64,000 nucleotides of DNA from Candidatus Omnitrophota bacterium (GTDB lineage: Bacteria; Omnitrophota; Gorgyraeia; Zapsychrales; Fredricksoniimonadaceae), in the NCBI GenBank assembly GCA_903901225.1, contig CAIUQE010000035.1, positions 9,249-73,248 of the forward strand, read 5' to 3'. Below, one piece after another: positions 2,947 to 22,516 of the stretch; the stretch's first letter is position 1; the number at the start of each line of letters is the position of its first letter. Below the pieces are notes generated by a model. That model was given only the letters and a program-made list of their open reading frames with translations, was not told where the DNA came from and searched no databases. The position numbers and the translations under genes were made by a program.

Positions 2947-5900
2947 TTGAAGAATTGTACGCGAGTGTTGCGTAAATTTATTGCCACCGTATTGATCCTG
3001 GCCTTCACGCTGATGGATCTGCGCGCCTATGCCCAGGGGGTGATCCCCTTGCCGCCGCCAGGCACGCGCCTGGCCCTCAGCCCTATTGTTGCCCCACCGC
3101 TGCTCAAGGGCATCAAGGTGTTCCGTGACGATCCTTTCCGTTTTGATTTTATCCTCGATAAAGGTGACGCGCCGTCCACGGATACGCAGGTTAAAACAGA
3201 TTCAACCCGCCTGATCAAATACTTCCTCGCCGCGCTCACAGTCCCTGAAAAAGACCTCTGGGTCAACCTTTCGCCCTACGAAAAAGACCGCATTGTGCCC
3301 GAAGCCTTTGGCCAGACCGAGATGGGGCGTGATCTTCTGGCCCAGGATTACATTCTTAAACAGATAACGGCATCAGTTCTCTATCCGGATGAGAAAACTG
3401 GCAAGGAATTCTGGGCTAAGGTCTACGCCGAAGCGCAGCAACGTTACGGCACAACCGACATCCCGGTGGACACCTTCAACAAAGTCTGGATCGTCCCGGA
3501 GAAAGCCACCGTCTATGAACACCAGGACGCCGCCTTTGTGGTCGAGAGCGGATTGAAAGTCATGTTGGAAAGTGATTACGTAGCCATGTCCCGGGCGGAC
3601 ATGAAGTCCGCCCCTACAACACAGGGTGTTGCTCTCATGAGCGTAGGGGAGGACCTTGTGTCCTCCCGTAACGAGATCGCAAAAAATGTTTTACGCGAAG
3701 TCATCATCCCCATCCTCGAAAAAGAAGTCAACGAAGGCAAGAATTTCGCCACGCTCCGCCAGGTTTACAACTCCCTCATCCTGGCCACCTGGTACAAGCG
3801 CAAGATCAAAGCCAGCATCATGGGCCGGGCGTACGTCGACCAAAAGAAAACCGCCGGCGTTGACATTGTTGACAAGAACGAGAAGGAAAAGATCTGGGCC
3901 CAATACGTCGAAGCCTTCAAGAAAGGCGCGTACAACTTCATCAAGGAAGAATATGACCCGTCCACGCAAACCACGATCCCCAGGAAGTATTTTTCCGGTG
4001 GGATGGATTGCTCGATGGAGGTGTTCAAGGTAAATGTAACAGATGCGGCTATGCCGGTTGAGGCAATTACCCCAGGACGTGACGTTGTTATCGGTGTAAC
4101 AGGGGCGCTGGAAAAGCCTGCCTTTGAAGAAAATTACAATTTGAAGACATCCGATCAGGACCACGCCATGTTCTCATCGGCGTTAAACATCAAATACAGG
4201 CCTGAGGTCGAACGAATTTATGATATTTACAGCCAGTTCATAAAGGATGGCGGAGGTTATGTATTGCCGTTTTCAAAAGAAAAAGCAGTGAAAAGATTAG
4301 ATTTTCGTTCAGCGGCGAAATCGTATTTTATTGCCGGATGTTATCTTGGTGTTGCCCTTGCTGTAGGTGGTATTCAGTATAGCCTGATACCGGATTCATT
4401 TTTTTTCCAAACAATTGGCAGTTCCATAAAAGTTCTTTCATTAGCGATGTTTTTTTATAAATCTTATACTTCTTTCCTGTACGGCGGGCTTCAGCCACTA
4501 ACTCATAAAGTTATCATGACACGGGCAACAGGTAAACTTGATGCTTTTCATGCGTATGGTATTTCTCATGAGATGGCCCATGTTCTGGAAATGCCAAAAA
4601 ATATTATATATGCTAATGCGTATGGTTTCTTAATGAGCAAGAAACTTGGCTATGAACATTCCAGCTATGATGAGAACATGGCTTTAATTTATGATTTGGA
4701 TATGTTTTCGTCTAAGAATCTGAATGACCATATCTGTCGTGGGCCGGGGTATGCGGTCGCCAATATTATTTTAAAAGAATTTCCCGGCACCTTGTCGGAT
4801 CAGGAGAGGTTGCTTAGAAAATTTCTTCAAGCAGTAGAAAGAAACGAATTTATGCTGGATGAAAGCATAAAAGATGCTTTGAAAAAGACACGATCAAGCC
4901 TGGAAGAGAAAGATTACTTTATAGTTGCTCCCAAACGTGAAAAAAGTTGGATATATCGATATGGGAACGGGATCGCTCAGCTGGCGTTACGGCATTACAA
5001 CAATGACGTTGACGCCGCGTTGCGATATATTTATCGGCTTAGTCGGCAACGGGATTCAAGGTTGGCAGATAAGCCCGTTGATAATGCTATGGAAGAAAAA
5101 AATGACGGCGGGATCAAAGATTTCAATGAAAAATCATTACTTGCCCCCCACCGCCTGACGATCGCCGAAGCCAGGGAGCGCTTGATCGACAGTTTAAAGG
5201 TCATCAAGGCGCATTATCCTGCTTTTCAAAAAGCTTGTTCCGATGGGCTTGAGGTTTTCAAGAACGAAGGAGTTAAGGCATTTGAAAGCAGATCTTATCC
5301 GGTGATCAAGGCAGAGGCCGATGCCCTTCGGGTCCACGTTGACGCGGTGAAGGCATTGCCCGCGTTATTGGGCTTTTCAGAGCCGGAAATGAAAGCCAAA
5401 CTGGATCCGTTCCTGCGGCAGATCGCTGAAGAAGCAAAAGTGGATAAGGTCCTTATTTCGTTCAGGACTGGTTTTTATTATGATTTTTCTTATACGAGCG
5501 GCTTTACGGATGAAGAAATTATGAATTTCAGATTACAGAACGATGAAATTTTCGATGTGATCTCTAATTCCGGAATTCAAATGAGTCCTGAGAAAATAGC
5601 CAAGGGGATGAACGCGTTAAGATCCGCGGGTATGGTTTCAGCACTCGACGTATCAACAGACGCAAAATGGTTGATCAAGATAGAGGATTCTTACATTTCA
5701 ATCGTTATCGGGCGCTCAGCGCAAGGGGTTTCATTGAATGGAGAGCTTACGGATAATGACAGGAAGGCTTTGGCCACGAAGTTGAACGCATTTGTAAGGA
5801 ATGGCCAAGCTCCGTGGTATGGGGTGAGGAAGTTTCTTGACGACAATCAATATAAAACATTTGACGATTTTATGTATTTCTTAAGGCACAACAGCGGGAT

Positions 5901-6819
5901 TGGTCCTTTAAAGGAACACATACTCCCGATCATTTATAATAATATTCCGGAATTGCTGAAAGGATCTCCCGCGCAAGACGGAAGGATTCAGCAGCGGGAT
6001 GATCACATTATTGGAAACATGGTAGAAGTATTAAAACAAACACAACTCCTTGGTAATGTGGAAACATTTTTGCAGTTATTGGAAAAGGGGGCTGAATTTA
6101 AATCTTGGGATATTTCAGGAGAAGTTCATCAGAGAGTCGCGTCATTTAAAGGGATGGCGGAAGACAAGAAGCTCAAGCTTGATATTTCCGGTCTCACAAA
6201 TGAAGCGCTGATCGTCCCTGCGTGCGACCTGAACTGGCTGGATGTGGTGGTGGATAATCTCCTTCAGAATGCCATTAAATATACATCGGCCGGCGCGGTG
6301 AAGGTTCGTCTTTCTAAAAAGATGATGCACGCGGAAGATCCTGATTTAGAACAAGCATTTGCTGTTCTGGAAGTCGAAGATACGGGCATAGGTGTTCCTG
6401 CAGATGAAAGGGTTGCAGTATTGGAGAGAGGATACCGGGCAACGAACGCGATCGCCGCTAAGATCAAAGGCACGGGCATAGGGTTGGATGCTGTTTCTAC
6501 TATTCTGCGCTTGATGCAAGGCGATATTACGGTTGAACCCGGTGAGAATGGAATAGGTTCAAAATTCATCGTCCGCTTGCCGCTTGTTCAAGATCCAAGC
6601 CAGGATCAAGCTGAGGTACCTTTACCCGGCGGCATCGACCTTAACCCGGCGCAACTTGATCTTAAAACGCAGAATTCCGGCGGCGAGATCGCTTTCAATC
6701 TTGACCCCACGTTGCTCGCCCGCCTGCAGAATGCTTCCGGCATTTCACCCGTGATCGTCAGTGTGCGGCCGCTGGACAGCATTTCTGCATTCATGGGGAT
6801 CCAGAAGCCTGTGAAATGA
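2947..6819 (+). CDS. giant (1290 aa) secreted/membrane protein, paralogue A: conserved N-terminal ~330 aa domain, two TM helices, C-terminal GHKL/HATPase_c ATPase domain, conserved ~60 aa C-terminal tail
   Basis: TTG start with an AAAGGA SD 6 nt upstream. Signal peptide ending AYAQG. Residues ~35-365 are ~65% identical to the 17180 protein. N-box LLQNAIKYT, G1 VEDTGIGV and G2 GTGIGLD motifs are present near the C-terminus, but no recognisable H-box. The last ~60 aa (GGIDLN..DL....G..F.DP...) are shared with the paralogue. Confidence 0.75.
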   Translation: MKNCTRVLRKFIATVLILAFTLMDLRAYAQGVIPLPPPGTRLALSPIVAPPLLKGIKVFRDDPFRFDFILDKGDAPSTDTQVKTDSTRLIKYFLAALTVPEKDLWVNLSPYEKDRIVPEAFGQTEMGRDLLAQDYILKQITASVLYPDEKTGKEFWAKVYAEAQQRYGTTDIPVDTFNKVWIVPEKATVYEHQDAAFVVESGLKVMLESDYVAMSRADMKSAPTTQGVALMSVGEDLVSSRNEIAKNVLREVIIPILEKEVNEGKNFATLRQVYNSLILATWYKRKIKASIMGRAYVDQKKTAGVDIVDKNEKEKIWAQYVEAFKKGAYNFIKEEYDPSTQTTIPRKYFSGGMDCSMEVFKVNVTDAAMPVEAITPGRDVVIGVTGALEKPAFEENYNLKTSDQDHAMFSSALNIKYRPEVERIYDIYSQFIKDGGGYVLPFSKEKAVKRLDFRSAAKSYFIAGCYLGVALAVGGIQYSLIPDSFFFQTIGSSIKVLSLAMFFYKSYTSFLYGGLQPLTHKVIMTRATGKLDAFHAYGISHEMAHVLEMPKNIIYANAYGFLMSKKLGYEHSSYDENMALIYDLDMFSSKNLNDHICRGPGYAVANIILKEFPGTLSDQERLLRKFLQAVERNEFMLDESIKDALKKTRSSLEEKDYFIVAPKREKSWIYRYGNGIAQLALRHYNNDVDAALRYIYRLSRQRDSRLADKPVDNAMEEKNDGGIKDFNEKSLLAPHRLTIAEARERLIDSLKVIKAHYPAFQKACSDGLEVFKNEGVKAFESRSYPVIKAEADALRVHVDAVKALPALLGFSEPEMKAKLDPFLRQIAEEAKVDKVLISFRTGFYYDFSYTSGFTDEEIMNFRLQNDEIFDVISNSGIQMSPEKIAKGMNALRSAGMVSALDVSTDAKWLIKIEDSYISIVIGRSAQGVSLNGELTDNDRKALATKLNAFVRNGQAPWYGVRKFLDDNQYKTFDDFMYFLRHNSGIGPLKEHILPIIYNNIPELLKGSPAQDGRIQQRDDHIIGNMVEVLKQTQLLGNVETFLQLLEKGAEFKSWDISGEVHQRVASFKGMAEDKKLKLDISGLTNEALIVPACDLNWLDVVVDNLLQNAIKYTSAGAVKVRLSKKMMHAEDPDLEQAFAVLEVEDTGIGVPADERVAVLERGYRATNAIAAKIKGTGIGLDAVSTILRLMQGDITVEPGENGIGSKFIVRLPLVQDPSQDQAEVPLPGGIDLNPAQLDLKTQNSGGEIAFNLDPTLLARLQNASGISPVIVSVRPLDSISAFMGIQKPVK
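3593..3667. repeat. REPIN-like hairpin doublet, copy A, in frame inside CDS (GGGCGGAC-atgaa-GTCCGCCC ...32 nt... GGGAGGAC-cttgt-GTCCTCCC)
   Basis: Two 21-nt hairpins (8-bp GC stem, 5-nt loop) 32 nt apart. Additional CCCCTAC/GTAGGGG pairing bridges the spacer. Homologous to the copies at 17832 and 10929. Confidence 0.8.
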
Positions 6820-7988: not shown

Positions 7989-8756
7989 ATGAAGCGTTTT
8001 TTCTGCTGTATGTTGTTACTTGCCGCCGGGTTTTTTCCCGTCGTTTCGTCGGCTCAGGGCAACAGTTTGTCCGATATCCAGACCGCCATTATCCAGGAGG
8101 ATTACAAGAAAGCCGGTGACCTGGCCAAAGATCTTCTGAAGACGAAGCCTTCGGGCAATGAGCTGGCCCAGGCGCGTTATTACCTGGCGCTGAGCGACCT
8201 GCGCCAGGGCAATTATCCGCAGGCGTATGAGATGTTCCGCAAGGTCGTTGATTCCCGTCCGGCCGCGGATATTTTTGAGAAAGCGACTGTGGGCGTGATC
8301 GACGCGCTTTACATGCGGGGGGATTACGAGAGCGCGTTGAACGAAGCGACGCAGTTCATGAATAAGCACCGTAAGGCCGAGGACATGAGCCTGATCTACC
8401 TTAAAGCGGCCCGCTCGAACCTGAAACTGGCCCGCTGGAACAAGGCGAAGGAATTCCTGGAAAAGATCGTCGTGGAATATCCGAACAGTTTTGAATGCGG
8501 CGTGGCGCGACAGCTTCTGGAAGAAAAACAGTATTTCACGGTCCAGGTCGGGGCTTTTGTCGAGCAGGCCCGCGCCGAGCGGTTGGTGCAGGAGCTGATG
8601 CGTCAGAAAGAGTATGCCTATGTGGTCGAGACTAAGTCGCCCGACGGCAAGAATTATTATCGTGTGCGCGTCGGCCAGCTCGCGGCCCTGAAAGACGCCC
8701 AGGCGCTCGAGTCCAGGCTTTCCGGCTCCGGTTATCCGACGCGCATTTATCCGTGA
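7989..8756 (+). CDS. TPR-repeat / SPOR-domain periplasmic protein
   Basis: Signal peptide, TPR-like repeats (AQARYYLALSDLRQGNYPQA...), and a C-terminal SPOR domain (YFTVQVGAF...YYRVRVGQ). Confidence 0.7.
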   Translation: MKRFFCCMLLLAAGFFPVVSSAQGNSLSDIQTAIIQEDYKKAGDLAKDLLKTKPSGNELAQARYYLALSDLRQGNYPQAYEMFRKVVDSRPAADIFEKATVGVIDALYMRGDYESALNEATQFMNKHRKAEDMSLIYLKAARSNLKLARWNKAKEFLEKIVVEYPNSFECGVARQLLEEKQYFTVQVGAFVEQARAERLVQELMRQKEYAYVVETKSPDGKNYYRVRVGQLAALKDAQALESRLSGSGYPTRIYP

Positions 8757-9667
8757 ACAAACCCCCCGTTATTTTTATCGCCGGCCCGACAGGTGTCGGG
8801 AAATCCGCGGTGGCCATGGCTTTCGCGGGACTCGCGACGCCAGAGGCTGTCGAGATCGTCGCGTGTGACGCCATCCAGGTCTACCGTGAGGTGGCGATCG
8901 CCAGCGACAAGCCTTCTTCCGAAATGCGCCGGCAGGTGCGGCATCATTTGCTGGATGTTGTTTCTGTTGTTGAGGAATTCAACGCGGCGCGATATCGCGC
9001 GCTGGCGGTCGCGGCGGTCGATGATATCCTTGCCCGCGGGAAACAACCCGTGATCGTCGGCGGCAGCGGGATGTACATGATGGCCTTGCTGGACGGTCTT
9101 TTTGAAGAAGGCGGGGCCTCGGAAAGCCTGCGCGTCGCGCTGGAAGGCAGGGAGCTTTCCGGCCTTTACGCGGAATTGCAACGCGTTGACCCCCAGGCGG
9201 CCGCAAAGATCTCATCGAATGACAAAAAACGCATCGTGCGCGCGCTGGAAGTTTTTCACGCGACGGGCGTGCCCATGTCCGTTCAGCAGAAGAAACGCGA
9301 AGGCCTGTGGGGCAAGCATGACATTCGTATCATCGGCCTCGAACGCCCACGCGCTGAACTATATCGTCGGGTGGAGGCGCGGGTTGACGCGATGTTCGAC
9401 GCCGGGCTCGTTGACGAGGTGAAAGGTTTATTGCGCAGGCCGCTTTCTTTGACGGCGGCGCGCATCATCGGCGTGCCCGAGATCAAGGGTGTTCTTAACG
9501 GTGAGTATGATCTGGAACGCGCGCGGTATCTGATCAAACTGCACACGCGCCATTACGTGAAACGCCAGATGACATGGTTCCGCAAGGACAAGCGCCTGCA
9601 GTGGCTGGTGCCGGGGCCGAATGAGACCGCCCCAGAAACAGCGCAACGCATAAAGGATATGATATGA
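8753..9667 (+). CDS. miaA: tRNA dimethylallyltransferase
   Basis: P-loop IFIAGPTGVGKS, typical length (304 aa) and MiaA core motifs. GTG start overlapping the upstream stop. Confidence 0.9.
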   Translation: MNKPPVIFIAGPTGVGKSAVAMAFAGLATPEAVEIVACDAIQVYREVAIASDKPSSEMRRQVRHHLLDVVSVVEEFNAARYRALAVAAVDDILARGKQPVIVGGSGMYMMALLDGLFEEGGASESLRVALEGRELSGLYAELQRVDPQAAAKISSNDKKRIVRALEVFHATGVPMSVQQKKREGLWGKHDIRIIGLERPRAELYRRVEARVDAMFDAGLVDEVKGLLRRPLSLTAARIIGVPEIKGVLNGEYDLERARYLIKLHTRHYVKRQMTWFRKDKRLQWLVPGPNETAPETAQRIKDMI

Positions 9668-10911
9668 AAGAAAAGATACTGCTGGCGATCGTGGATATGA
9701 AGCTTCGGAATGCCTGGCCGGTTGAAGAAGTTATCCATGAGATGACGGAACTTGTGAAGGCGTGCCAGGGCGAGGTGGTGGGGCATATTATTTGCCCGGC
9801 GCATCCTCCGACGGCCGCCACGCTCATTCACAGCGGCAAGGTCCTTGAGGTCGCTGAATTGGCCCGTGTCCAGGGCGCGCAGGGGGTTGTTTTCAGCGAG
9901 GAGCTTAAGGGTGTCCAGCAGCGTAATCTTGAAGAAGCGCTTGCCGTTAAGACGATCGACCGCACCCAGCTTATCCTCGATATTTTTGCCCGCCGCGCGG
10001 TATCGCTCGAAGGGAAACTGCAGGTCGAGTTGGCCCAGCTGGCGTACCGCCTGCCGCGGCTGGCCGGCCATTATGACGACCTTTCGCGTCAGGGCGGCGG
10101 CATCGGCACGAGCGGCCCCGGCGAGACCAAGCTTGAGGTGGACCGCCGGCGCATTGCAGTGCGCATCGACAAGCTCAAGAAAGACCTTTTGGATGTGACC
10201 CAGAGCCGCATGACCAAACGCAAGAAACGGGAGTTGCAGCACATCCCGCTCATTTCGCTCGTCGGTTATACCAACGCGGGAAAGTCCACCCTTCTTAACA
10301 CGCTGACCGGCGCCCATCAGGCAACCAAAGACGGGCTGTTCACGACGCTTGATTCGCTCGCGCGCCAGCATGTCCTGCCTGATCGGCAGAAAGTTGTTTT
10401 TTCGGACACGGTCGGGTTCATGCGCGAGCTGCCGCACAACTTGATCGAGGCGTTCAAGGCTACGCTTGAGGAAGTGCAGAGCGCGGACATCCTCCTGCAC
10501 GTGGTGGATGTCAGCAATCCGCGTTACCGCCATTTGAAAGAGAGCGTCGACCAGGTGCTTGACGCGCTGGGGGCGCTGAACAAGCCGACGATCCTGGTCT
10601 TCAACAAGATCGACCGGGTCGAGGACAAGGAAGAGCTTGAAACGGCCTGCGGAAGATACGGCAATACCATCGCGGTTTCGGCGCTGGAAAAACAGAACAT
10701 CGACGGGCTCCTGCGCCTGATCGAAAAAGAACTGGGCGGGCGTGTCGTGGCGGTGGATGTGGCGATCCCCGTCAACCGCATGGATCTGGTGAACATGGTC
10801 CACAAGCAGGGCCAGGTCGAAGCCATTGAATACTCGGGGGAGAGCATCCGCGTGAAGGCCGTCGTGCCCCAGCAGCTCGCCGGGCTTCTTGAGAAAGCCG
10901 CTGCGTCCTAG
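9664..10911 (+). CDS. hflX: GTPase HflX
   Basis: HflX N-domain followed by G-domain motifs (GYTNAGKSTLLNTLTG, DTVGF, NKID). Confidence 0.9.
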   Translation: MKEKILLAIVDMKLRNAWPVEEVIHEMTELVKACQGEVVGHIICPAHPPTAATLIHSGKVLEVAELARVQGAQGVVFSEELKGVQQRNLEEALAVKTIDRTQLILDIFARRAVSLEGKLQVELAQLAYRLPRLAGHYDDLSRQGGGIGTSGPGETKLEVDRRRIAVRIDKLKKDLLDVTQSRMTKRKKRELQHIPLISLVGYTNAGKSTLLNTLTGAHQATKDGLFTTLDSLARQHVLPDRQKVVFSDTVGFMRELPHNLIEAFKATLEEVQSADILLHVVDVSNPRYRHLKESVDQVLDALGALNKPTILVFNKIDRVEDKEELETACGRYGNTIAVSALEKQNIDGLLRLIEKELGGRVVAVDVAIPVNRMDLVNMVHKQGQVEAIEYSGESIRVKAVVPQQLAGLLEKAAAS

Positions 10912-10928
10912 AACTCCGTTGAACGTAG

Positions 10929-11009
10929 GGGCCGACCTTGTGTCGGCCCGAAACATTTGCCGGATATCATAAGGATGCATTCTCCGACGGGAGGACACAA
11001 GGTCCTCCC
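10929..11009. repeat. REPIN-like hairpin doublet, copy C, intergenic (GGGCCGAC-cttgt-GTCGGCCC ...39 nt... GGGAGGAC-acaag-GTCCTCCC)
   Basis: Same 21-nt hairpin unit as inside the giant genes. The two hairpins are in mutually inverted orientation. Lies 18 nt after the hflX stop. Confidence 0.8.
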
Positions 11010-11045
11010 CCACGCACCATTTAAACATTCACAGAAAATTTTTTC

Positions 11046-11074
11046 TTGACAAAATCCAAGGTGAGTTGTATATT
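11046..11074 (+). promoter_or_regulatory. sigma70-type promoter TTGACA-17-TATATT
   Basis: Perfect -35 hexamer, 17-nt spacer and TATATT -10, ~150 nt upstream of the MORN gene. Confidence 0.6.
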
Positions 11075-11117
11075 TTAGCAGTAACCCATTGAGAGTGCCA
11101 GAATCAGTGGGTTTTTT
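11075..11117 (+). promoter_or_regulatory. CIRCE-like element (TTAGCAGTA-N9-GAGTGCCAG) overlapping a 10-bp stem-loop followed by a U-run (intrinsic-terminator-like leader)
   Basis: Each half matches the CIRCE consensus 7/9. The stem AACCCAUUGA/UCAGUGGGUU (one G-U pair) has an 11-nt loop and is followed by UUUUUU. It sits immediately after the -10. Confidence 0.4.
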
Positions 11118-11226
11118 CCGGCAAAGATTTTGGCACTCAATATCCAAGAGTGATAGAAACACTTGAACCAGAATTTTGTTGTTTGATAATTGCAACACCT
11201 GACGCGTCTGGTAGAATGAAGGGGCC

Positions 11227-12237
11227 ATGTTCAAACGCTTCCTCTTTTTTGCTATCGTTTGCGTTATCAGCGTTGCCAGCGCCTGGGCCCAGGACAAGGT
11301 CAAGGATGGTTTTTACAACGAGTACGATGCCAAAGGCGTTCTGGTCCGGGCCGTGGAATACCAGTTGGGCGTGCCTCACGGGCGTTTCCGCGCGTATTAT
11401 CCCGACGGGCGCATCAAGGCCACGGGCCATTATCTCAACGGCCAGCTTGACGGGGAGCTTGAGGAATATCGTCCGGACGGAAAACCCCTGACGCGGGCTG
11501 TTTACCGGCAGGATCGTTTGCACGGGGTGAAGGTGTCGTATTATCCCGACGGTGTGATCAAAAGCGAGGAAACGTTCATTGAGGGCGCGAAGGACGGGGT
11601 GAGCAAGGAGTATGACCGGCTCGGGCGGCTCGTCTGGGCGCGTTCTTTCCGGCATGCCCAGGAGGATGGTGTTTCAAAACAATACTATCCCAGCGCGCGG
11701 GTTTATCGTGAGTATGAGTATAAGAACAATGTTCAGCACTGGTATATCCGTGAGTACGCCGAGGACGGGAAGCTCACAGGCGTGTATCAGGCGGATAACG
11801 GGCTGCGTGAAGGGTCGGGCAAGGAATATTTTACCACGGGCGAGATAAAGCTCGACGGGTTCTTTGAGAAGGATCAGCTGAACGGCCTTGTGAAGATCTA
11901 TGACAAGAACGGCCATCTTCATATCCGGGCGAATTATACGGCGGGCCATATTGATGATGCCGCCTGGCGCGAATATTACGAGACGGGTGAATTGCGCTGG
12001 GTCGTGCCGGTGCGCCAGGACCTGAAAGAAGGCCTGGGCCGCGAGTATTTTGAGAACGGCGTTCTCAAGAGTGAGGGCAGCTTCGCCCATGACAAGCGTG
12101 AGGGCGTTTTCAAAATATTTGATACGGAGGGCATCCTTGTCGCGGAAGATAAATACAAGGCGGACTGGCTCCTGCGGCATACGGAATTCTATCCGTCGGG
12201 AAAGGTAAAGACGGACAAGTATTTTTTTGATCAATGA
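11227..12237 (+). CDS. MORN-repeat (YwqK-like) secreted protein
   Basis: Signal peptide, then ~12 tandem YxDGxxxxEGxYxNGxxxG-type MORN variant repeats. Confidence 0.65.
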   Translation: MFKRFLFFAIVCVISVASAWAQDKVKDGFYNEYDAKGVLVRAVEYQLGVPHGRFRAYYPDGRIKATGHYLNGQLDGELEEYRPDGKPLTRAVYRQDRLHGVKVSYYPDGVIKSEETFIEGAKDGVSKEYDRLGRLVWARSFRHAQEDGVSKQYYPSARVYREYEYKNNVQHWYIREYAEDGKLTGVYQADNGLREGSGKEYFTTGEIKLDGFFEKDQLNGLVKIYDKNGHLHIRANYTAGHIDDAAWREYYETGELRWVVPVRQDLKEGLGREYFENGVLKSEGSFAHDKREGVFKIFDTEGILVAEDKYKADWLLRHTEFYPSGKVKTDKYFFDQ

Positions 12238-12243
12238 CCGGTA

Positions 12244-12272
12244 TTGACAGGGATGGGTCTTTTTTTTATACT
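12244..12272 (+). promoter_or_regulatory. sigma70-type promoter TTGACA-17-TATACT (hrcA operon)
   Basis: Consensus -35, 17-nt spacer containing a T8 run, and TATACT -10, 70 nt upstream of hrcA. Confidence 0.55.
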
Positions 12273-12341
12273 GTGCGCCTGGCAATAAGACCGCTTGATT
12301 GCTAATTTGCGGGCCGGGATAAACATTCAAAGGACGCGTAT

Positions 12342-13070
12342 ATGCGCAAAAGTTCGCACGAGAGGAAAGACGTTGTTCTGGGCATGGTGGTTCGCCATTA
12401 TATCCAGACCACGGTCCCCGTCAGCTCCGCCTATATCGCCGAGGAGTATGAGAAGGACATCAGTTCGGCCACGATCCGCAATATCCTCGCCGAGCTTGAG
12501 GGTGACGGCTATCTCATGCACCCGCATACGTCGGCCGGCCGCGTCCCGACTGAACGAGGTTATAGATATTACGTGGATTTCCTGATGCAGGAGATCCAGC
12601 TTATTGAAGAAGACCGCCGCCGCGTCCACAAGGAATACGAGCGCGGCATCGAAGAGTTGGAAGCGCTGGTTGAAACAACGACCGAGGTCCTTGCGGATCT
12701 GACGCATTGCACGAGCATCGTGAGCGTGGACGGCTGGACGCACCATTATGTTTGTCGCGGCACGAATTATCTTGCCGAGGCGATCGGGATGCAGGGCCTG
12801 CAGAAGGTCGTGGCCATCCTCAAGGCCCTGGAAGAAAAAGACCGGGTGCTGGCGGTGTTGCGGCGCGACCTGGACAGGCGGATCAAGATCTATATCGGGC
12901 AGGAAACGGATTGCGATGCTTTTGACGGTTGTGCCATGGCGGTGGCGCGTTTTGCGACACGCCGAGGCCCGGCGGGACGCATCGCGGTGCTTGGGCCCGT
13001 GCGGATGGATTATCCCCGGGTCGTTTCCACCCTGGAATATGTTTCTGAATTGATGCATGAGGCCATGTGA
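12342..13070 (+). CDS. hrcA: heat-inducible transcription repressor HrcA (short, 242 aa)
   Basis: N-terminal winged helix (SSATIRNILAELEGDGYL...HTSAGRVPTERGYRYY) and C-terminal GPVRMDY motif. First gene of the hrcA-grpE-dnaK-dnaJ order. Confidence 0.85.
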   Translation: MRKSSHERKDVVLGMVVRHYIQTTVPVSSAYIAEEYEKDISSATIRNILAELEGDGYLMHPHTSAGRVPTERGYRYYVDFLMQEIQLIEEDRRRVHKEYERGIEELEALVETTTEVLADLTHCTSIVSVDGWTHHYVCRGTNYLAEAIGMQGLQKVVAILKALEEKDRVLAVLRRDLDRRIKIYIGQETDCDAFDGCAMAVARFATRRGPAGRIAVLGPVRMDYPRVVSTLEYVSELMHEAM

Positions 13071-13588
13071 AAGATATGACACCGGAGAACGAACAGGATA
13101 TGGATGATATTCCCGCTGAACCGCAGGTCGCGGACGCGGCGGAGACGTTGAGGAAGGATCTTGACGAGGCGAAAGACAGGTACATCCGCCTTTTCGCCGA
13201 GTTCGAGAACATGCGCAAGCGCCATGACCGGGAGCGCTCCCAGATCATCAAGTACGCGCATGAGGAAGTGATCATCGAGATGCTCGGGTTTTATGAGGAT
13301 TTCGAACGCGTGATCGTGGCGGCCAAGGCCAATCCGTCAAACGCGTCGGAACTCGTCAAGGGCATTGAGATGATCTACGGGCGGATGCAGCAGCTTCTGA
13401 AAAAGTACGATGTGCGCGAGATCGAGGCTGTGGGCAAAAAATTCGACCATAATTGCCATGAGGCGCTGATGGTCGAAGAATCCGCGGAACATGAGGATGG
13501 CACAGTGCTCGAGGTTTTTCAAAAAGGGTTTATGCTGGGCGACAGGGTGGTGCGCACGGCCAAGGTTAAAGTTTCCAAGAAGAACTAG
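13067..13588 (+). CDS. grpE: nucleotide exchange factor GrpE
   Basis: GrpE motifs (RLFAEFENMRKR...) and a 4-nt overlap with hrcA. Confidence 0.9.
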   Translation: MKDMTPENEQDMDDIPAEPQVADAAETLRKDLDEAKDRYIRLFAEFENMRKRHDRERSQIIKYAHEEVIIEMLGFYEDFERVIVAAKANPSNASELVKGIEMIYGRMQQLLKKYDVREIEAVGKKFDHNCHEALMVEESAEHEDGTVLEVFQKGFMLGDRVVRTAKVKVSKKN

Positions 13589-13600
13589 GAGGTAGCGAGT

Positions 13601-15523
13601 ATGAGTAGAGTTATTGGTATCGATCTGGGAACATCGAATTCAGCGGCCGCGGTCCTTGAAGGGGGCCGTCCGGTCATCATCCCCTCGGCCGAGGGCGCCG
13701 GGGTCGCGTCGGGCAAGGCTTTCCCGTCGTTCGTGGCGTTCACCAAGGACGGGCAGAGGCTCGTGGGTGAGCCCGCGCGCCGTCAGGCGGCCATGAACTC
13801 CGAAGGGACCGTCTACGCGGCCAAACGCAAGATGGGGACGGACCACAAGTTCAGCGTGTTCGGCAAGGACTTCACGCCCCAGCAGATCTCGGCGTTCATC
13901 CTGCAGAAGATCAAGGCCGACGCGGAAAAGTATCTGGGCGACACGGTCGAAGGCGCGGTCATCACGGTGCCGGCGTATTTCAACGACAACCAGCGCCAGG
14001 CCACCAAGGACGCGGGAGAGATCGCGGGCATGAAAGTCCTGCGCATCATCAATGAGCCCACGGCCGCGTGCCTCGCCTACGGCGTTGACAAGGCGGGCAA
14101 GGAACAGAAGATCATGGTGTTCGACCTCGGCGGCGGGACGCTCGACGTGACCATCCTTGAGATGGGCGAAGGCGGGACCTTTGAGGTTCTTTCCACCAGC
14201 GGCGACAACCTGCTTGGCGGGACGGACATGGATAATGTGATCATCGATCATATCGTTCAGACGTTCAAGAAAGAAACAGGCATTGACCTGATGAAGGACA
14301 AGATGGCGTTCCAGCGCTTGCGCGAGGCGGCGGAGAAAGCAAAAGTGGAACTGTCATCGACGATCCAGACCGACATCAACCTGCCGTTCATCTCGGCGGA
14401 CGCTTCAGGCCCGAAGCACTTGACCATGTCGCTTGACCGGGCGAAGCTGGAAAGCCTTGTCGGCCCCATTGTCGAACGTTGCCGCGGTCCGATCCGTCAG
14501 GCGATGAAGGACGCGGGCGCCAAGATCGGCGGCGAGGTCAAGATCGACAAGATCATCATGGTCGGCGGCCCCACGCGCATGCCCATCGTGCAGAACTTTG
14601 TCGAGAAAGAGGCCGGCCAGAAGATCGAACGCGGCATTGACCCCATGGAATGCGTGGCGCTCGGCGCCGCGGTGCAGGGCGGCATCATCAAGGGGGATGT
14701 GAAGGACGTCCTTCTTCTGGACGTGACGCCGTTGTCGCTGGGCATCGAGACCATGGGCGAGGTTTTCACCAAGATCATTGAGCGCAACACGACCATCCCG
14801 ACCAAGAAGAGCCAGGTCTTTTCGACCGCGGCCGATAATCAACCGGCGGTGACCATTCGCGTGCTGCAGGGCGAGCGCAAGATGGCCAGTGATAATACCG
14901 AGCTGGGGAAGTTCGACCTCGTGGGCATCCCGCCCGCGCCGCGCGGCGTTCCGCAGATCGAGGTGACCTTTGACATCGACGTGAACGGCATCGTGCATGT
15001 CCACGCCAAAGACAAGGCCACGGGCAAGGAACAGTCCATCCAGATCACGTCGCCGAAGAAACTTTCGGAGAACGAGATCGACCAGATGGTCAAGGACGCG
15101 GAAAAGTACGCGGCTGAGGACGAGAAGCGCAAGGAAGAGGCGGAATTGCTCAACCAGGCGAACACCCTGACCTATTCGACGGAAAAAGCGCTCAGTGATT
15201 ACGGCGATAAAGTCCCGCAGGCCGAACGCGATACCATCCTCAAGGAACTTGAGGGCCTCAAGCAGGCGGTCAAGGACAAGGCGGCTGATCGTATCAAGTC
15301 GTCCATGGAGTCGTTGACCAAGTCCAGCCACAAGCTCGCCGAGGAGATGTACAAGGCGACCCAGGCGCAGCAGGGCGGCGCCCAGGGGCAAAGTGGCGCG
15401 GGAGCGCAGGAGAACGCGGGCCCGGGGCCGGAAGGTTCCCAGGAGCAGCCCGGTCCGGACAAGAAGTCCGGCGGTAAGGAAGACGTGATCGACGCGGATT
15501 TCAAGGTCCAGGACGATAAATGA
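13601..15523 (+). CDS. dnaK: molecular chaperone DnaK (Hsp70)
   Basis: [19 protein letters not shown] and other Hsp70 signatures. 640 aa. Confidence 0.95.
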
Positions 15524-16662
15524 AAAAGGACTATTACGAGATCCTCGGCATAAAGAAAGATTCGGACGCGGCGGAGGTGAAGAAAGCGTATCGCCAATTG
15601 GCGATGCGCTTTCACCCCGACCGTGTTGAGGAGAAGGAAAAGAAGTCCGCCGAGGAGAAGTTCAAGGAGATCTCCGAGGCTTACGGGGTGCTTTCCGACC
15701 CGCAGAAACGCGCGACGTATGACCAGCACGGCCATTCCGGGATTGACCAGAACTACACGTCGGACGATATTTTCCGCGGTGCTGATTTCTCGAGCGTCTT
15801 TGGTGATGGCGGCGGTATGGAAGATATCCTCAGCCATTTCTTCGGCGGGGCGTTTGGCGGCGGTGGCGGCGGCAGCCGGCGTTCGCGCGGGGCGGCGCGG
15901 GGCCGTGATATCCAGTATGAAGTGGAATTGAGCCTTGAAGAAGCGTTCAGCGGCATGAAAAAGACCATCAAGGTGCCGCGCAACGAAGTGTGCGGTGATT
16001 GCCGGGGTTCGGGCGCCAAAGGCGGCACGGCCATGGCGGAGTGCGCGACGTGCGCCGGGCGCGGGCAGGTCATGGTCAACAGCGGTTATTTCCGCCTGGC
16101 CCAGACATGTCCGAATTGTCGCGGCGCGGGGCGCATCATCAAGGAAACCTGCCCCTCATGTCGGGGCGTGGGATATAACCGGATGACGCGCAACATCGAC
16201 GTCAGTTTTCCGGCGGGTTTGGACAATGATTCCCAGATGCGGGTGCGGGGCGAGGGCGAAGTGGGCCAGGGCGGCCCGGGCGACCTTTACCTTTATATCC
16301 GCGTGCGCGAACACGCGCGGTTCCGCCGGGTCCGCAATGACCTGGAGATGAACCTCGCGGTCAGTTTTGTGAAAGCGACGCTCGGCGGTGAGGTCAGCGT
16401 GCCGACGCTGAGCGGGCATGTGACGATGAAGTTGCCGGCGGGGACGGAATGCGGCAAGATGTTCCGGATCAAGGGCAAGGGCATGCCGGATGTGCACTCC
16501 CAGGGGTCGTTTGGCGATCTTTACGCGAAAGTGGTGATCGATGTTCCCGCGAGGCTGGACGCCGAACAGCGCCGGTTGCTTGAGGAATTTGCCAAAGCCA
16601 GCGGCGAAACCGTGGATGGCGCCGGTTCTTTTAAAGACAAAATAAAGAAAGTATTCAAATAA
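15520..16662 (+). CDS. dnaJ: molecular chaperone DnaJ
   Basis: J-domain (YYEILGI...HPDR), a G/F region and four CxxCxGxG zinc-finger repeats. Confidence 0.95.
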
Positions 16663-16663
16663 T

Positions 16664-16939
16664 ATGCCTACGTACGATTATGAATGCTCGGCCTGCGGCC
16701 ACGCGTTCGAAGCGCTGCAGACCATGAATGAGCCGAAACTGGAAAAGTGCCCCGCGTGCGGCAAGAAGAAGCTGCACCGGCTCATCGGCACCGGCAGCGG
16801 GGTCATTTTCAAAGGTTCCGGTTTTTATGAGACCGATTACAAGAAGAAGACACCTTCAGCTTCCGAATCCTCCAAACCCGCGAGCCAGCCTTCCTGCGCC
16901 GCTGCTTGTCCTCACGCGGGCAAGTGCGCCTCCCAATGA
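16664..16939 (+). CDS. FmdB-family zinc-ribbon protein
   Basis: MPTYDYECSACGHAFE...CPACG, the typical FmdB fold and length. Confidence 0.75.
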   Translation: MPTYDYECSACGHAFEALQTMNEPKLEKCPACGKKKLHRLIGTGSGVIFKGSGFYETDYKKKTPSASESSKPASQPSCAAACPHAGKCASQ

Positions 16940-17050: not shown

Positions 17051-17179
17051 AACTCACAACTGGATTTTTTTGTGCCACAAACTTGCATTTTGCTACATTA
17101 TGTGCTATTTTTCTGCTTAAACCACCTATTGACAGATCGACTTTGTTCATAAACCCTTAAATTTTTGAGGATTAATGCC

Positions 17180-21202: not shown

Positions 21203-21219
21203 ACGGGAGTGAACCTGGG

Positions 21220-21921
21220 TTAACCCGCGGGTGGTCCTGAAAGGGCCTGCAACATGACAATGGTGTCTTCAATAAGCTGTTTTCTGGCCCATTGTTTTTG
21301 ATCTTCGTCCAGGGCGGTGCCCAATCCCTGCAAGATGTTCCTGGGCGTAAAAGTCTTCCTGATGAACTTGATCGTCATCTGGATCAATTCATCCGTCCCC
21401 TTGCCTGTCCGTTCACGGATCAGGTCAGAATCAGCGCGGAATCCTGACTTGAGGAAATACCAGATATCATACAGATCCCGGGCGACAGGTGTTTTACGGT
21501 CAGTCAAAGCCACCAGTTTATTCGTCAGAAGGGTGGTTTCCTCGGGGATAGTGAGGGAAACGCCCAGGAACAGGACAGGTTTGAATTTGTTAGCCGTCCA
21601 AAGCCTTTTGTTAAGCTCGATCTTGATGTTGGGATAACCCGCGCCGTAGTCAAGGACACCCAAAAGTGTAAAGTGTTTGTCTTGCCAGTCGAGGATGCGG
21701 CCCTCCCGGGCCAGGATGGAGCGTAAGCGCGCGACGTCATCATCGGAGAAAGGCTTGAGCATATCGAAATCCAGGTCAAAAGAGAAGCGGGGAAGGCCGT
21801 AGAAGAAGAGCGCGCACGTGCCGCCTTTAAAGGCGATCTTCCCGGGAAATGCTTTGGTAATGGACGTCAGCAAGCTTGTCAAATATCGGCGATGAAGCGC
21901 CTGGTCAAACTTGCGTTCCAT
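21220..21921 (-). CDS. AbiEii/AbiGii-family nucleotidyltransferase toxin (type IV TA / abortive infection)
   Basis: FKGGTCALFFYGLPRFSFDLDFDM nucleotidyltransferase motif. Convergent with giant gene B, with 17 bp between stops. Confidence 0.75.
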   Translation of the reverse strand: MERKFDQALHRRYLTSLLTSITKAFPGKIAFKGGTCALFFYGLPRFSFDLDFDMLKPFSDDDVARLRSILAREGRILDWQDKHFTLLGVLDYGAGYPNIKIELNKRLWTANKFKPVLFLGVSLTIPEETTLLTNKLVALTDRKTPVARDLYDIWYFLKSGFRADSDLIRERTGKGTDELIQMTIKFIRKTFTPRNILQGLGTALDEDQKQWARKQLIEDTIVMLQALSGPPAG

Positions 21922-22516
21922 AAAACTTACGCGCTTTCTTTTGCACGGTTAAAGGGAAAATACCACATAATTGTTTCAGATAGCTCCGGTCAAGGCGATC
22001 CGGAGTATCAATGTCAGGCATAAAACCGAAATACAATGAATCCAGGATGGCCCGTTCGGGGCAGGCGATAGAAACATTGTTTTTTGTGATGATCCCTTCC
22101 TGATGAAAAAACAATTCTTTCTTTATGGAGTAGTAGGCGTACGTGATGCTTTGGATCTTGCGCCGATAAGAGAGAAGGGCTACGGAATCAATGCTTTTGC
22201 GCTGCTGAAAATTGATCCCCGCGCTTGCCAAAGCGCTGTTAAAAGACACATACGAAGGCGTGATCACTAAATTAGCCAGCGCACGCGTGTCATAATTCTC
22301 GTCAATGGCATAATAGCCCTTGGCCAGCCTGAGGATCAGCTTCCGTTCCACCATGCGGGCGGCGCTGATCTTGGCGGTCAGCGCGCTGTCCTTCCAGAGT
22401 ACACGAAGATCCTGCGGACGGAAAACCGTTCGCCCGGAACTCATCAAAATTTTCAATCGCGTTGATGCATTCATATGCGATAGAAGTATACAACATTGTA
22501 TCCTTGGATGCAACAT
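21905..22516 (-). CDS. AbiEi-family antitoxin/transcriptional regulator (start may be the internal Met at 22474)
   Basis: N-terminal AbiEi-type winged helix (GRTVFRPQDL...RKLILRLAKGYYAI). Overlaps the toxin gene by 17 nt. Confidence 0.65.
   Translation of the reverse strand: MLHPRIQCCILLSHMNASTRLKILMSSGRTVFRPQDLRVLWKDSALTAKISAARMVERKLILRLAKGYYAIDENYDTRALANLVITPSYVSFNSALASAGINFQQRKSIDSVALLSYRRKIQSITYAYYSIKKELFFHQEGIITKNNVSIACPERAILDSLYFGFMPDIDTPDRLDRSYLKQLCGIFPLTVQKKARKFYGTQV

Follow-up and report, generated by a model that had tools for sequence, protein, structure and literature searches.

A candidate HrcA-type control region, probably orphaned by the loss of hsp20, beside the hrcA operon of a Candidatus Omnitrophota bacterium

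What does a strong promoter control when it runs directly into a CIRCE-like repeat and a terminator-like hairpin, and when the genes that follow encode a MORN-repeat protein and then HrcA? We addressed this question in a 64-kb stretch of DNA from a Candidatus Omnitrophota bacterium (here called the window). Positions 11035 to 11170 are probably the conserved 5' control region of an HrcA-regulated Omnitrophota heat-shock transcription unit, now orphaned. The control region is real and mostly ordinary, being of the known HrcA-CIRCE circuit type. Its sole unusual feature is the hairpin interleaved with the operator, the role of which is putative. The features of the region and its neighborhood are as follows (window coordinates).

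11035-11044, + strand: A4T6 tract, UP-element-like, directly upstream of the -35 hexamer (read from the sequence)
11046-11074, + strand: promoter P1, sigma-70 type; TTGACA (11046-11051), 17-nt spacer, TATATT (11069-11074); 11/12 to consensus
11075-11101, no strand assigned: CIRCE#1, promoter-proximal candidate HrcA operator; TTAGCAGTA-N9-GAGTGCCAG; 7/9 + 7/9, 4 mismatches
11083-11117, + strand: hairpin plus T6, intrinsic-terminator-like; 11083-11092 pairs with 11104-11113, T6 at 11112-11117
11130-11156, no strand assigned: CIRCE#2, candidate ancestral hsp20 operator; TTGGCACTC-N9-GAGTGATAG; 3 mismatches
11157-11170, no strand assigned: deletion junction; compared with L001 and L081, a Shine-Dalgarno sequence, the hsp20 ORF, and some 30 nt have been lost
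11179-11217, + strand: MORN upstream region; motif TTGTTTGATAATT, then promoter TTGCAA-16-TGgTAGAAT (11190-11217) with an extended -10
11227-12237, + strand: MORN_2-repeat protein with an N-terminal signal peptide (Pfam MORN_2, E = 2e-31)
12244-12305, + strand: hrcA promoter, TTGACA-17-TATACT (12244-12272), 11/12 to consensus, plus CIRCE#3
12279-12305, within the preceding feature: CIRCE#3 at the hrcA promoter; CTGGCAATA-N9-GATTGCTAA; 13/18 matches
12342-13070, + strand: hrcA, short form, 242 aa (Pfam HrcA), first gene of hrcA-grpE-dnaK-dnaJ

Promoters and candidate HrcA operators

A preliminary description of this DNA had reported a TTGACA-17-TATATT promoter followed by a CIRCE-like repeat with 7/9 plus 7/9 matches, and both are present, at 11046-11074 and 11075-11101, respectively. 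Within the first 20 kb, P1 is the best promoter-like site, tied with the hrcA promoter at 12244. The A4T6 tract upstream of it may act as an UP element; an A-run and T-run occupy the equivalent position in the relatives' loci L001, L081, L002, L074, and L003.

CIRCE#2, CIRCE#3, and the MORN promoter had been overlooked. Measured against the CIRCE consensus TTAGCACTC-N9-GAGTGCTAA (quoted in PMC545781 and PMC8762339), the sites at 11075, 11130, and 12279 match at 14, 15, and 13 of 18 positions, respectively. All three CIRCE-like sites of the window lie within 1.25 kb of each other, and the chance expectation per 64 kb is 0.09 for sites with four or fewer mismatches and 0.01 for a site as good as CIRCE#2 (three mismatches). 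A matrix trained on 111 CIRCE sites of relatives, which had been selected for similarity to canonical CIRCE, gave CIRCE#2 a score of 22.2, CIRCE#1 18.5, and CIRCE#3 18.0 (next best in the 64 kb, 6.5). A score as high as that of CIRCE#1 is expected by chance about 0.02 times per 64 kb. The three sites fall at the weak end of the clade's scores (range, 17.0 to 33.2; median, 29.8). The clade consensus, derived from 78 hrcA-proximal sites in relatives, is canonical and reads TTGACA-17-TTATAAT-N6-TTAGCAWTC-N9-GAGTGCTAA.

The proposal of an HrcA-type promoter and operator in the classical position was borne out: CIRCE#1 adjoins the -10 hexamer of P1 and covers the expected transcription start, the three sites cluster, and relatives carry an orthologous module. 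A -10 that abuts the repeat in this way is also found at the hrcA promoters of seven relatives. CIRCE#3 begins 6 nt past its -10, a layout that is identical at 49 of the 81 hrcA-proximal sites in relatives, and its degenerate left arm is common to the nearest clade. The claim that the hrcA promoter has no CIRCE therefore fails, since an orthologous, if degenerate, copy occupies 12279-12305. Judging from sequence, the repeats are very probably HrcA operators at a genuine promoter. No consistent sigma-70 layout was found at CIRCE#2 and the distal sites. The promoter candidates considered for CIRCE#2 (a repeat-embedded TTAGCA-18-YARnnT, the T-run as an UP element, and a TAAAAT -10 at the A/T junction) were too poorly conserved and were rejected.

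Downstream of CIRCE#3 lies hrcA-grpE-dnaK-dnaJ, and the hrcA product scored 208 bits on TIGR00331 (above the cutoff of 197.2); in its winged-helix domain it can be aligned with T. maritima HrcA (1STZ; E = 6e-16), and its homologues bear the names Omnitrophica or Omnitrophota. CIRCE#1 and CIRCE#2 precede the MORN gene in the window and hsp20 or clpB in relatives. [quoted passage not shown] Searches by tblastn with approximate E. coli GroEL and GroES queries detected no groES or groEL in the window or in 167 relatives' loci.

The control region in relatives and the loss of hsp20

In the closest relatives, hflX is followed by a promoter, CIRCE#1 with the interleaved hairpin, a T-run, and CIRCE#2, and this module drives a gene for an exported Hsp20 that is often followed by clpB and the MORN gene. 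The layout is plainest in L001, whose HrcA is 82% identical to that of the window. There, the stop codon of hflX falls within the -35 hexamer of TTGACA-17-TAAACT, which is followed by TTAGCAGAA-N9-GAGTGCCAA with a hairpin and T6, then by TTAGCACTC-N9-GACCGCCAG, a ribosome-binding site, a 231-aa HSP20 ORF, and the MORN gene. L081 matches L001, and L054 (54% identity in HrcA) has the matching layout with near-perfect CIRCEs. Orthologues of CIRCE#2 precede hsp20 or clpB in L001, L081, L002, L074, L003, L005, and others. In L044, the counterpart of P1 and CIRCE#1 directly drives clpB, which indicates that P1-CIRCE#1 is an mRNA promoter. The hsp20 and clpB genes lie 2 to 5 kb from hrcA in relatives, and in many Omnitrophota loci a MORN orthologue stands between them and hrcA. 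The contigs of the HrcA homologues P0009, P0015, and P0017 have no hflX-hsp20 spacer and fell outside the spacer comparison.

Conservation follows the regulatory elements. P1 is 83% identical to its counterpart in L001 and 72% in L081, and the module as a whole is 71% and 62% identical, whereas spacers and linker range from 0 to 67% and 4-fold degenerate sites reach merely 34 to 52%. The alignment shows CTTGACAAA in P1 to be invariant across the window, L001, L081, and L054. Against L001 and L081, most CIRCE arms show 78 to 89% identity: 7 to 8 of 9 positions agree in five of six arm comparisons, the exception being the right arm of CIRCE#2 against L001 (5/9), and the spacers agree at 0 to 6 of 9. 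When L054 is included, the CIRCE#1 arms are 7-8/9 identical and the spacer 4-6/9. Aligned over the leader, only the promoter, the CIRCE arms, and the T-run are conserved.

Relative to these loci, about 0.7 kb carrying hsp20 has been deleted in this genome. Homology to L001 stops a few nucleotides past CIRCE#2 and restarts at gaattttgtt(g/c)tttgataattgcaaca, and tblastn detected no hsp20, clpB, or hspR-like sequence anywhere in the 64-kb window. We rejected misassembly as the cause because an independently assembled 78-kb contig has the identical 316-nt hflX-MORN spacing and 14 further contigs share the neighboring genes. Identical proteins also occur in ENA assemblies, ERZ1426592 among them. 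The elements, their orthology, their pattern of conservation, and the deletion can be read directly from these comparisons, and we hold with high confidence that hsp20 was deleted from this very locus. The module is orphaned because the missing segment included the ribosome-binding site along with hsp20. The downstream heat-shock operon had been proposed as the target; the relatives place the module at the head of an hsp20(-clpB) unit, which is what has been deleted here, and so it was not built to regulate the MORN gene or hrcA. CIRCE#2 now has no obvious target and the MORN gene has its own promoter, so the module may be idle. That promoter, together with the TTGTTTGATAATT motif, is kept upstream of the MORN gene in L001, L081, L082, L002, L005, L006, and L007.

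These comparisons indicate that the classical HrcA-CIRCE heat-shock circuit is in use in Omnitrophota, an uncultivated phylum, with CIRCE at both hrcA and the adjacent hsp20-clpB unit, within a conserved supercluster in the order hflX, hsp20, clpB, MORN gene, and hrcA-grpE-dnaK-dnaJ. They also illustrate that a regulatory module can outlive its gene and, read alone, would wrongly point to the MORN gene or hrcA.

The hairpin inside the operator

The 10-bp stem, 11-nt loop, and T6 previously noted at this site are present, and a terminator-like structure is conserved in relatives. The ten pairs include one G-U, and the folding energy is -12.9 kcal/mol (z = -2.25 against shuffles). The 5' arm of the stem is the CIRCE#1 spacer and the loop is the CIRCE#1 right arm. 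Hairpins with differing stems occur at the equivalent position in L001, L081, L054, L002, L074, and L003; energies across the seven loci range from -13 to -23 kcal/mol, and each hairpin is followed by a T-run. No column-wise covariation count was possible because the stems are out of register in the alignment; hairpin conservation was judged by per-sequence folds and a shuffle test. On this basis, the structure appears to be maintained by compensatory change in relatives. The interleaved form is enriched: of 137 CIRCE sites scored with the matrix, 4 have it, and so does L081 (examined separately), against 4 among 2,740 shuffled controls. A simple terminator scan misses the hairpin because its 11-nt loop exceeds 8 nt, and by that scan the genome has 26 terminator-like sites against 24.3 expected, which is no enrichment.

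For an mRNA leader, it is odd to have a terminator placed straight behind a strong promoter. As in promoter-proximal intrinsic terminators and leader attenuators, the stem-loop and U-run lie within about 40 nt of the expected start and before the regulated gene. Unlike leader attenuators, the P1 leader showed neither a competing antiterminator upstream nor a leader peptide or ligand-binding fold, and Rfam 15 gave no match in the whole 64 kb at the gathering threshold and none at E <= 5 in 10850-12400. The sole alternative helix is one of 13 bp between 11093-11105 and 11126-11138, and it cannot kinetically prevent termination because its second strand is transcribed downstream of the U-run. Several other roles were considered and set aside. 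As an antiterminator, the RNA stem of CIRCE#1 would have arms that, on inspection, pair poorly, with the left arm mostly upstream of the expected start. An RNA thermometer or thermolabile terminator was rejected as the main idea: Type B hairpins reach -20 to -23 kcal/mol and no ribosome-binding site is sequestered, the hairpin at 11083-11117 being free of any Shine-Dalgarno sequence. A leader peptide was discarded since the 27-codon ORF of the L002 leader is not conserved and L074 has no ATG there.

That the hairpin is a leader terminator acting on P1 transcripts has, to judge from these structures, about an even chance of being correct. Its main competitor as a role for the hairpin is that of intrinsic terminator of the upstream miaA-hflX operon, with P1 merely overlapping it. 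This fits L001, where the hairpin is the first terminator-like structure past hflX because the hflX stop lies within the -35 hexamer, and it fits the window, where the hairpins between hflX and P1 (10929-10949 and 10989-11009) have no T-runs. However, L054 has the interleaved hairpin without any + strand ORF of at least 52 aa within about 500 nt upstream of P1, so that P1 transcripts appear to be its main target there, and not the end of a substantial upstream gene. A conserved strong promoter, moreover, stands upstream of the hairpin in every Type A or B locus, so that the hairpin would also act on RNA made from P1. We regard hflX termination as an unlikely main function; the two roles are not mutually exclusive, and the hflX role may be secondary.

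Proposed function, rival readings, and known systems

As the control region of a heat-shock unit, the module would work as follows. P1 would act as a strong sigma-70-type promoter. At normal temperature, HrcA on CIRCE#1 would cover the start site and block initiation. Any RNA that started near 11080 would fold the hairpin at once and reach the U-run, so that many transcripts would stop after about 35 to 40 nt; with the CIRCE#1 spacer as the 5' arm of its hairpin, the element would be a leader terminator or attenuator. CIRCE#2, 55 bp downstream, would have provided a second HrcA block as the ancestral hsp20 operator. In the nearest relatives, the unit so controlled would begin with the exported Hsp20 and often continue into clpB and the MORN gene. 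In the present genome, read-through would enter the MORN gene, itself equipped with a promoter, and might continue into hrcA; such read-through is possible because no terminator-like hairpin was seen between 11117 and 12244. HrcA binding, the transcription start site, termination, and present-day activity are what we infer from these elements.

Chance resemblance to a promoter, a CIRCE, and a terminator could be argued from the two mismatches to consensus in each CIRCE arm, yet the expectations of 0.01 to 0.09 per 64 kb, the clustering of the three sites, and the orthology of the whole module in relatives make it practically negligible. The preliminary description listed, among its candidate roles, a degenerate operator or attenuator governing read-through into hrcA-grpE-dnaK-dnaJ, with hrcA lacking a CIRCE of its own. 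The hairpin-free stretch from 11117 to the hrcA promoter would allow this, as would the position of the MORN stop codon, 7 nt from the hrcA -35. Its premise is contradicted, however, by the 11/12 promoter and orthologous CIRCE of hrcA, which make the upstream element unneeded to explain hrcA control, and in relatives the module precedes hsp20 or clpB, 2 to 5 kb from hrcA; we consider this reading very improbable. More weight belongs to the idea that the promoter-operator-hairpin block is a nonfunctional relic, jobless after the hsp20 deletion and simply not yet degraded. The downstream gene is indeed missing, the MORN gene has its own conserved promoter, and the window's CIRCE sites all score low for the clade. 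L032, moreover, has undergone a similar gene loss and still has an orphan distal CIRCE beside its hrcA promoter, which shows that orphaned operators can persist. Against this, P1 still matches at 11 of 12 positions, neither the hairpin nor T6 has decayed, and the CIRCE arms agree with L001 and L081 at 7 to 8 of 9 positions even though synonymous sites are near saturation; none of this is decisive, and we hold the relic to be a minority possibility.

The remaining readings start from the interleaving itself. The promoter, CIRCE#1, hairpin, and T-run could form a device in which operator and intrinsic terminator are physically interleaved. Two Omnitrophota clades conserve the interleaved unit, and this genome retains it despite the loss of the downstream hsp20. 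If the device were real, heat-released HrcA would switch on a hairpin RNA of about 35 to 40 nt or a tightly attenuated leader, and the unit would have an hsp20-independent function, either by yielding a small regulatory RNA or by exerting control at the DNA and RNA levels together. We find this distinctly doubtful. More specifically, the segment from P1 to the T-run might be a gene by itself, encoding an HrcA-gated RNA of about 35 to 40 nt with its own function; the loop of this RNA, a CIRCE half-site, could, for example, base-pair with the left arm of CIRCE#2, to which it is complementary, farther down the leader. A strong promoter, a hairpin, and a U-run are the anatomy of a small-RNA gene, the unit has been kept though hsp20 is gone, a 13-bp complementarity connects the loop and its flanking sequence with 11126-11138, and the interleaved design recurs in two clades. 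But Rfam gave no match even at E = 5, sequence outside the operator arms is not conserved, the complementarity is weaker in L001 and L081 on inspection and largely automatic given two copies of CIRCE, and the equivalent promoter-operator drives clpB mRNA in L044. A stand-alone RNA gene is thus quite improbable. Whatever its role, the interleaving of operator and terminator hairpin, seemingly kept by compensatory change in two clades, may bear on how tightly a heat-shock promoter can be silenced.

Among known systems, the B. subtilis-type HrcA-CIRCE circuit (groESL and hrcA-grpE-dnaK-dnaJ) is close to the heat-shock control region proposed here: a 9-N9-9 inverted repeat with conserved arms and a free spacer directly follows a sigma-70-type promoter, and the window's hrcA heads the dnaK operon and has its own CIRCE. 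Unlike in that circuit, the window's sites carry three to five mismatches, HrcA is a 242-aa short form, there are two operators at a distance of 55 to 59 bp, the first of them interleaved with a terminator-like hairpin, and the target in relatives is the exported Hsp20 (plus clpB) instead of groESL and has been deleted here. Variant operators have precedents in the Desulfovibrio vulgaris groESL CIRCE, cTgGCACTC-N9-GAGTGCcAA (PMC545781, Table 8), and in the relaxed core TAGCA-N15-TGCTAA (cited in PMC8762339). The half-sites CTGGCA, TTGGCA, and TGCCAG, which are found in CIRCE#1, CIRCE#2, and CIRCE#3 of the window, are shared with variants whose third position is G or whose first is C, whereas those variant CIRCEs are predicted or ChIP derived, come from other phyla, and include none reported with an interleaved hairpin. 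Lactobacillus plantarum hsp3 is an HrcA-regulated small heat-shock-protein gene (PMC6503756). Similarly, a small heat-shock-protein gene stands behind CIRCE in L001, L081, L002, and L054; unlike hsp3, the relatives' protein carries a signal peptide, and the window has no such gene.

Dual control of chaperone operons by HspR and HrcA occurs in Helicobacter pylori and Streptomyces. In more distant Omnitrophota, CIRCE-hsp20-clpB is immediately preceded by an HspR-like gene, which suggests that two repressors act on one cluster. In contrast to those dual systems, the HspR-like gene has been lost in the window's subclade, and the palindrome TTAGA-N3-TCTAA, conserved upstream of that gene, differs from the HAIR motif. 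In a metagenome scan with an HflX alignment, which matched universal GTPase motifs, the synteny hflX-(hspR-like)-CIRCE-hrcA was widespread among the matches listed, which came mostly from distant taxa.

Probable CIRCE operators at the hflX-MORN junction and at hrcA

Between hflX and the MORN gene lies a module made up of a promoter (P1), a CIRCE (CIRCE#1) with a hairpin and T-run, and a further CIRCE (CIRCE#2); CIRCE#3 lies at hrcA. The elements and genes of this region are as follows.

7989-8756, SPOR/TPR protein gene
8753-9667, miaA
9664-10911, hflX
11035-11044, A4T6 tract upstream of P1
11046-11074, P1, sigma-70-type promoter: TTGACA (11046-11051), 17-nt spacer, TATATT (11069-11074); 11/12
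11075-11101, CIRCE#1, TTAGCAGTA-N9-GAGTGCCAG, directly after P1; 7/9 + 7/9 to CIRCE
11083-11092 paired with 11104-11113, hairpin: 10 pairs, 11-nt loop, -12.9 kcal/mol, contiguous T6 to 11117
11130-11156, CIRCE#2, TTGGCACTC-N9-GAGTGATAG; 3 mismatches, 0.01 expected (CIRCE scan)
11179-11191, motif upstream of the MORN gene, TTCTTTGAYAAWW
11190-11217, conserved MORN gene promoter, TTGCAA-16-TGgTAGAAT
11227-12237, gene for a MORN_2 protein with a signal peptide
12279-12305, CIRCE#3, CTGGCAATA-N9-GATTGCTAA, 6 nt after the -10 of the hrcA promoter (TTGACA-17-TATACT)
12342-13070, hrcA
13067-13588, grpE
13601-15523, dnaK
15520-16662, dnaJ
16664-16939, zinc-ribbon protein gene

The promoter, the adjoining CIRCE-like repeat, and the hairpin with its 10-bp stem, 11-nt loop and T6 were all present where the preliminary description had placed them. 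P1 was the best promoter-like site in the first 20 kb, tied with the hrcA promoter at 12244. CIRCE#2, a better copy than CIRCE#1 and 55 bp downstream of it, had been missed, and the premise that the hrcA promoter has no CIRCE was mistaken, given CIRCE#3. Sites with at most five mismatches numbered three in the window, all within 1.25 kb (1.15 expected per 64 kb). With a scoring matrix trained on 111 sites from relatives, CIRCE#2, CIRCE#1, and CIRCE#3 scored 22.2, 18.5, and 18.0, respectively (next best window position, 6.5); the chance of such a score is about 0.02 per 64 kb. The feature is real and nonrandom. Against a clade median of 29.8, all three sites score low. The literature accepts relaxed CIRCE cores (PMC8762339), and half-sites of the CTGGCA and TTGGCA type occur in predicted CIRCEs of other organisms (PMC545781, Table 8).

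Among hrcA loci from relatives (n = 80, one per species), nearly all had a CIRCE 40 to 260 nt upstream of hrcA. The consensus of 78 hrcA-proximal sites was TTGACA-17-TTATAAT-N6-TTAGCAWTC-N9-GAGTGCTAA, with a 6-nt gap between the -10 end and the repeat in 49/81 sites. In the nearest relatives of the window, the left arm at hrcA is consistently degenerate (CTGGCAAAC, CTAGCAAAG, or TTGGCAAAT). The window site at 12279-12305 fits this pattern exactly, which points to hrcA being autoregulated in the usual way.

The window HrcA exceeds the TIGR00331 cutoff, and its winged-helix domain aligns with that of Thermotoga maritima HrcA. Its homologues come from Candidatus Omnitrophota and are only 242 to 245 aa long across the clade, compared with 338 aa for T. 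maritima 1STZ. The alignment of this short form to 1STZ is limited to the N-terminal winged helix (residues 4 to 83). Pfam HrcA_C matches only over the last ~90 positions of the model, so ~100 aa of the usual GAF/dimerization region seems to be absent or swapped for a helical linker.

We compared the module with the loci of two relatives, L001 (the closest, with an HrcA 82% identical) and L081. Fourfold degenerate sites of hflX, MORN, and hrcA were only 34 to 52% identical, a near-saturated background. Identity to L001 and L081 was 71% and 62% over the whole module and 83% and 72% over P1. Most CIRCE arms were 78 to 89% identical (the exception being the right arm of CIRCE#2, 5/9 against L001), and the spacers and linker were 0 to 67% identical. 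Retention of promoter and arms with drifting spacers is the signature of a predicted protein-binding promoter/operator. In repeat geometry, position, and pattern of conservation, and in having a cognate repressor, the module matches classical CIRCE control. The earlier proposal of an HrcA operator at 11075-11101 appears correct, and by kind the module is, judged from sequence, a classical CIRCE promoter/operator that would work like one.

The hsp20 unit of relatives and the probable loss of hsp20 from the window

Among its candidate roles, the preliminary description had proposed read-through into the hrcA operon as the target of the module. This was wrong, as in relatives the module is the leader of an hsp20 unit. 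In L001, the hflX stop codon lies inside the -35 hexamer of the promoter (TTGACA-17-TAAACT), followed by CIRCE#1 (TTAGCAGAA-N9-GAGTGCCAA) with hairpin and T6, CIRCE#2 (TTAGCACTC-N9-GACCGCCAG), a ribosome-binding site, a signal-peptide-bearing HSP20 protein of 231 aa, the sequence gaattttgttctttgataattgcaaca, and the MORN gene. L081 has the identical order. Homology between the window and L001 ends a few bases past CIRCE#2 and restarts at gaattttgttgtttgataattgcaaca (11171 onward), indicating that ~0.7 kb carrying hsp20 was deleted in the window. No hsp20, clpB, or hspR-like sequence was found in the entire 64 kb. Misassembly was ruled out as the cause by an independently assembled 78-kb contig, which encodes identical HflX and MORN proteins at the same 316-nt spacing; the neighboring genes are common to 14 further contigs. 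We therefore consider it very probable that hsp20 was deleted. The window feature is probably the orphaned leader of an HrcA-regulated hsp20 unit. Small heat shock protein genes under HrcA control are already known (PMC6503756).

Besides the hrcA-proximal sites, relatives have a second CIRCE class, 3' of hflX or of a small HspR-like gene and 5' of hsp20 and/or clpB. The commonest arrangement across loci, and for that reason probably the ancestral one, is hflX-(hspR-like)-[CIRCE]-hsp20-clpB-MORN-[P+CIRCE]-hrcA-grpE-dnaK-dnaJ. A second orphaned operator occurs in L032 (5819, 5912), where the hrcA promoter and its CIRCE come directly after an HspR-like gene, a T-run, and the distal CIRCE, with no intervening hsp20, clpB, or MORN gene. 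Among the matches listed, nine metagenome contigs (L087, L088, L093, L105, L118, L119, L123, L132, and L138) have hflX directly 5' of a CIRCE and an hrcA-grpE cluster, whether the HspR-like gene is present or not. Their HflX proteins are only 43 to 55% identical, and the synteny of hflX with the heat shock cluster is therefore old and widespread.

The Hsp20 proteins behind the module (L001, 4099-4794; L002, 1692-2354; L081, 3375-4049) have an N-terminal signal peptide and a coiled-coil-like linker. They are thus apparently exported small heat shock proteins, which is unusual for the family. The ClpB-like ATPases of the cluster (L002, 2519-4645; L005, 2701-4809; L082, 4736-6862; 702 to 708 aa) begin at the first AAA domain, seemingly without the usual N-terminal domain.

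The operator-interleaved hairpin

Two leader layouts were found. In type A (the window, L001, L081, and the distant L054, with an HrcA 54% identical), the -10 adjoins CIRCE#1, whose spacer forms the 5' arm of the hairpin and whose right half-site forms the loop; a T-run follows, and CIRCE#2 begins 55 to 59 bp past CIRCE#1. Type B leaders (L002, L074/L082, and L003) have a single CIRCE, separated from the promoter by ~20 nt, a GC-rich hairpin, and a T-run, in that order. The seven hairpins range from -13 to -23 kcal/mol, and their stem sequences are unrelated. An interleaved hairpin was found at 4/137 matrix-scored CIRCE sites (one of them, L041, a weak 6-bp case), and in a separate check at L081, compared with 4/2740 shuffled controls. 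We know of no described operator-interleaved terminator, and none surfaced in the literature searched, though the search was not aimed specifically at interleaving. The promoter/operator kind is already known; this one design feature is unusual and conserved.

The hairpin could simply terminate the preceding gene. L054 has no plus-strand ORF of at least 52 aa within ~500 nt upstream of P1, so the hairpin there is unlikely to be the mere terminator of a substantial upstream gene. In L044, the same P1-CIRCE#1 directly drives clpB, and P1 is therefore an mRNA promoter. An alternative 13-bp helix (12 Watson-Crick pairs and one G-U; 11093-11105 with 11126-11138) joins the right arm of CIRCE#1 and its flank to the left arm of CIRCE#2 and its flank and dominates the full-leader fold. 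This helix is transcribed only after the U-run, and it pairs less well in L001 and L081. No upstream antiterminator was found.

As a leader of an HrcA-regulated unit, the module would act at several steps. HrcA on CIRCE#1 would cover the start site of the strong P1. Escaped or derepressed transcripts would start essentially at the hairpin, and many would stop at the U-run; CIRCE#2 would be a second HrcA block before the former hsp20. Read-through in the window would run into the MORN gene and might continue to hrcA, since no terminator-like hairpin was seen ahead of 12244. The MORN gene's own promoter and upstream motif are found in all close relatives.

The P1 flank aaatacTTGACAaaatt is identical in L003 (P1 without hspR) and L006 (hspR-like promoter), an indication that P1 is what remains of the old hspR-like promoter after this subclade lost the hspR-like ORF. 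We speculate that the leader hairpin, together with the new promoter-proximal CIRCE in type A, compensated for the lost HspR-like repressor.

Neighboring proteins, repeats, and motifs

The heat shock cluster of many Omnitrophota includes the MORN_2-repeat protein, with its signal peptide, as a conserved member between hsp20/clpB and hrcA. The best NCBIfam match of this protein, a Leptospira LIC20035-type adhesin, is weak. Low-G+C stretches at 4001-6000 and 18001-22000 (0.43 to 0.48, compared with ~0.57 elsewhere in the window) coincide with very large ORFs (2947-6819 and 17165-21202, the latter a TPR protein). A REP/MITE-like repeated element, whose two GC-rich hairpins (GGGGCCGACCTTGTGTCGGCCC and GGGAGGACACAAGGTCCTCCC) are nearly reverse-complementary to one another, occurs at 10924-11014 (+), 17831-17907 (-), and 3641-3669. 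One copy fills the hflX-P1 spacer, which L001 lacks; another is internal to the ORF at 17165-21202, so the true start of this ORF may lie farther downstream than called.

The HspR-like gene product is of the MerR family (NF047375, 66 bits, below cutoff). A palindrome, TTAGA-N3-TCTAA, is conserved 76 to 120 nt upstream of this gene in 23/28 loci (including L004-L006, L011, L019-L022, and L026). It lies upstream of the gene's consensus promoter, often with a related second copy between the -35 and -10, and is a candidate operator distinct from the HAIR motif. The window has neither the gene nor the palindrome. In ~20 species with the HspR-like gene, the distal CIRCE (e.g., L011, 1937; L076, 3181; L055, 886) is preceded by an A-run and then T6-8, with a gap of exactly 9 nt to the repeat. 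No hairpin or recognizable sigma-70 promoter was found at these sites. The fixed 9-nt spacing suggests that the tract is functionally tied to the operator as a promoter element, UP element, or DNA bend.
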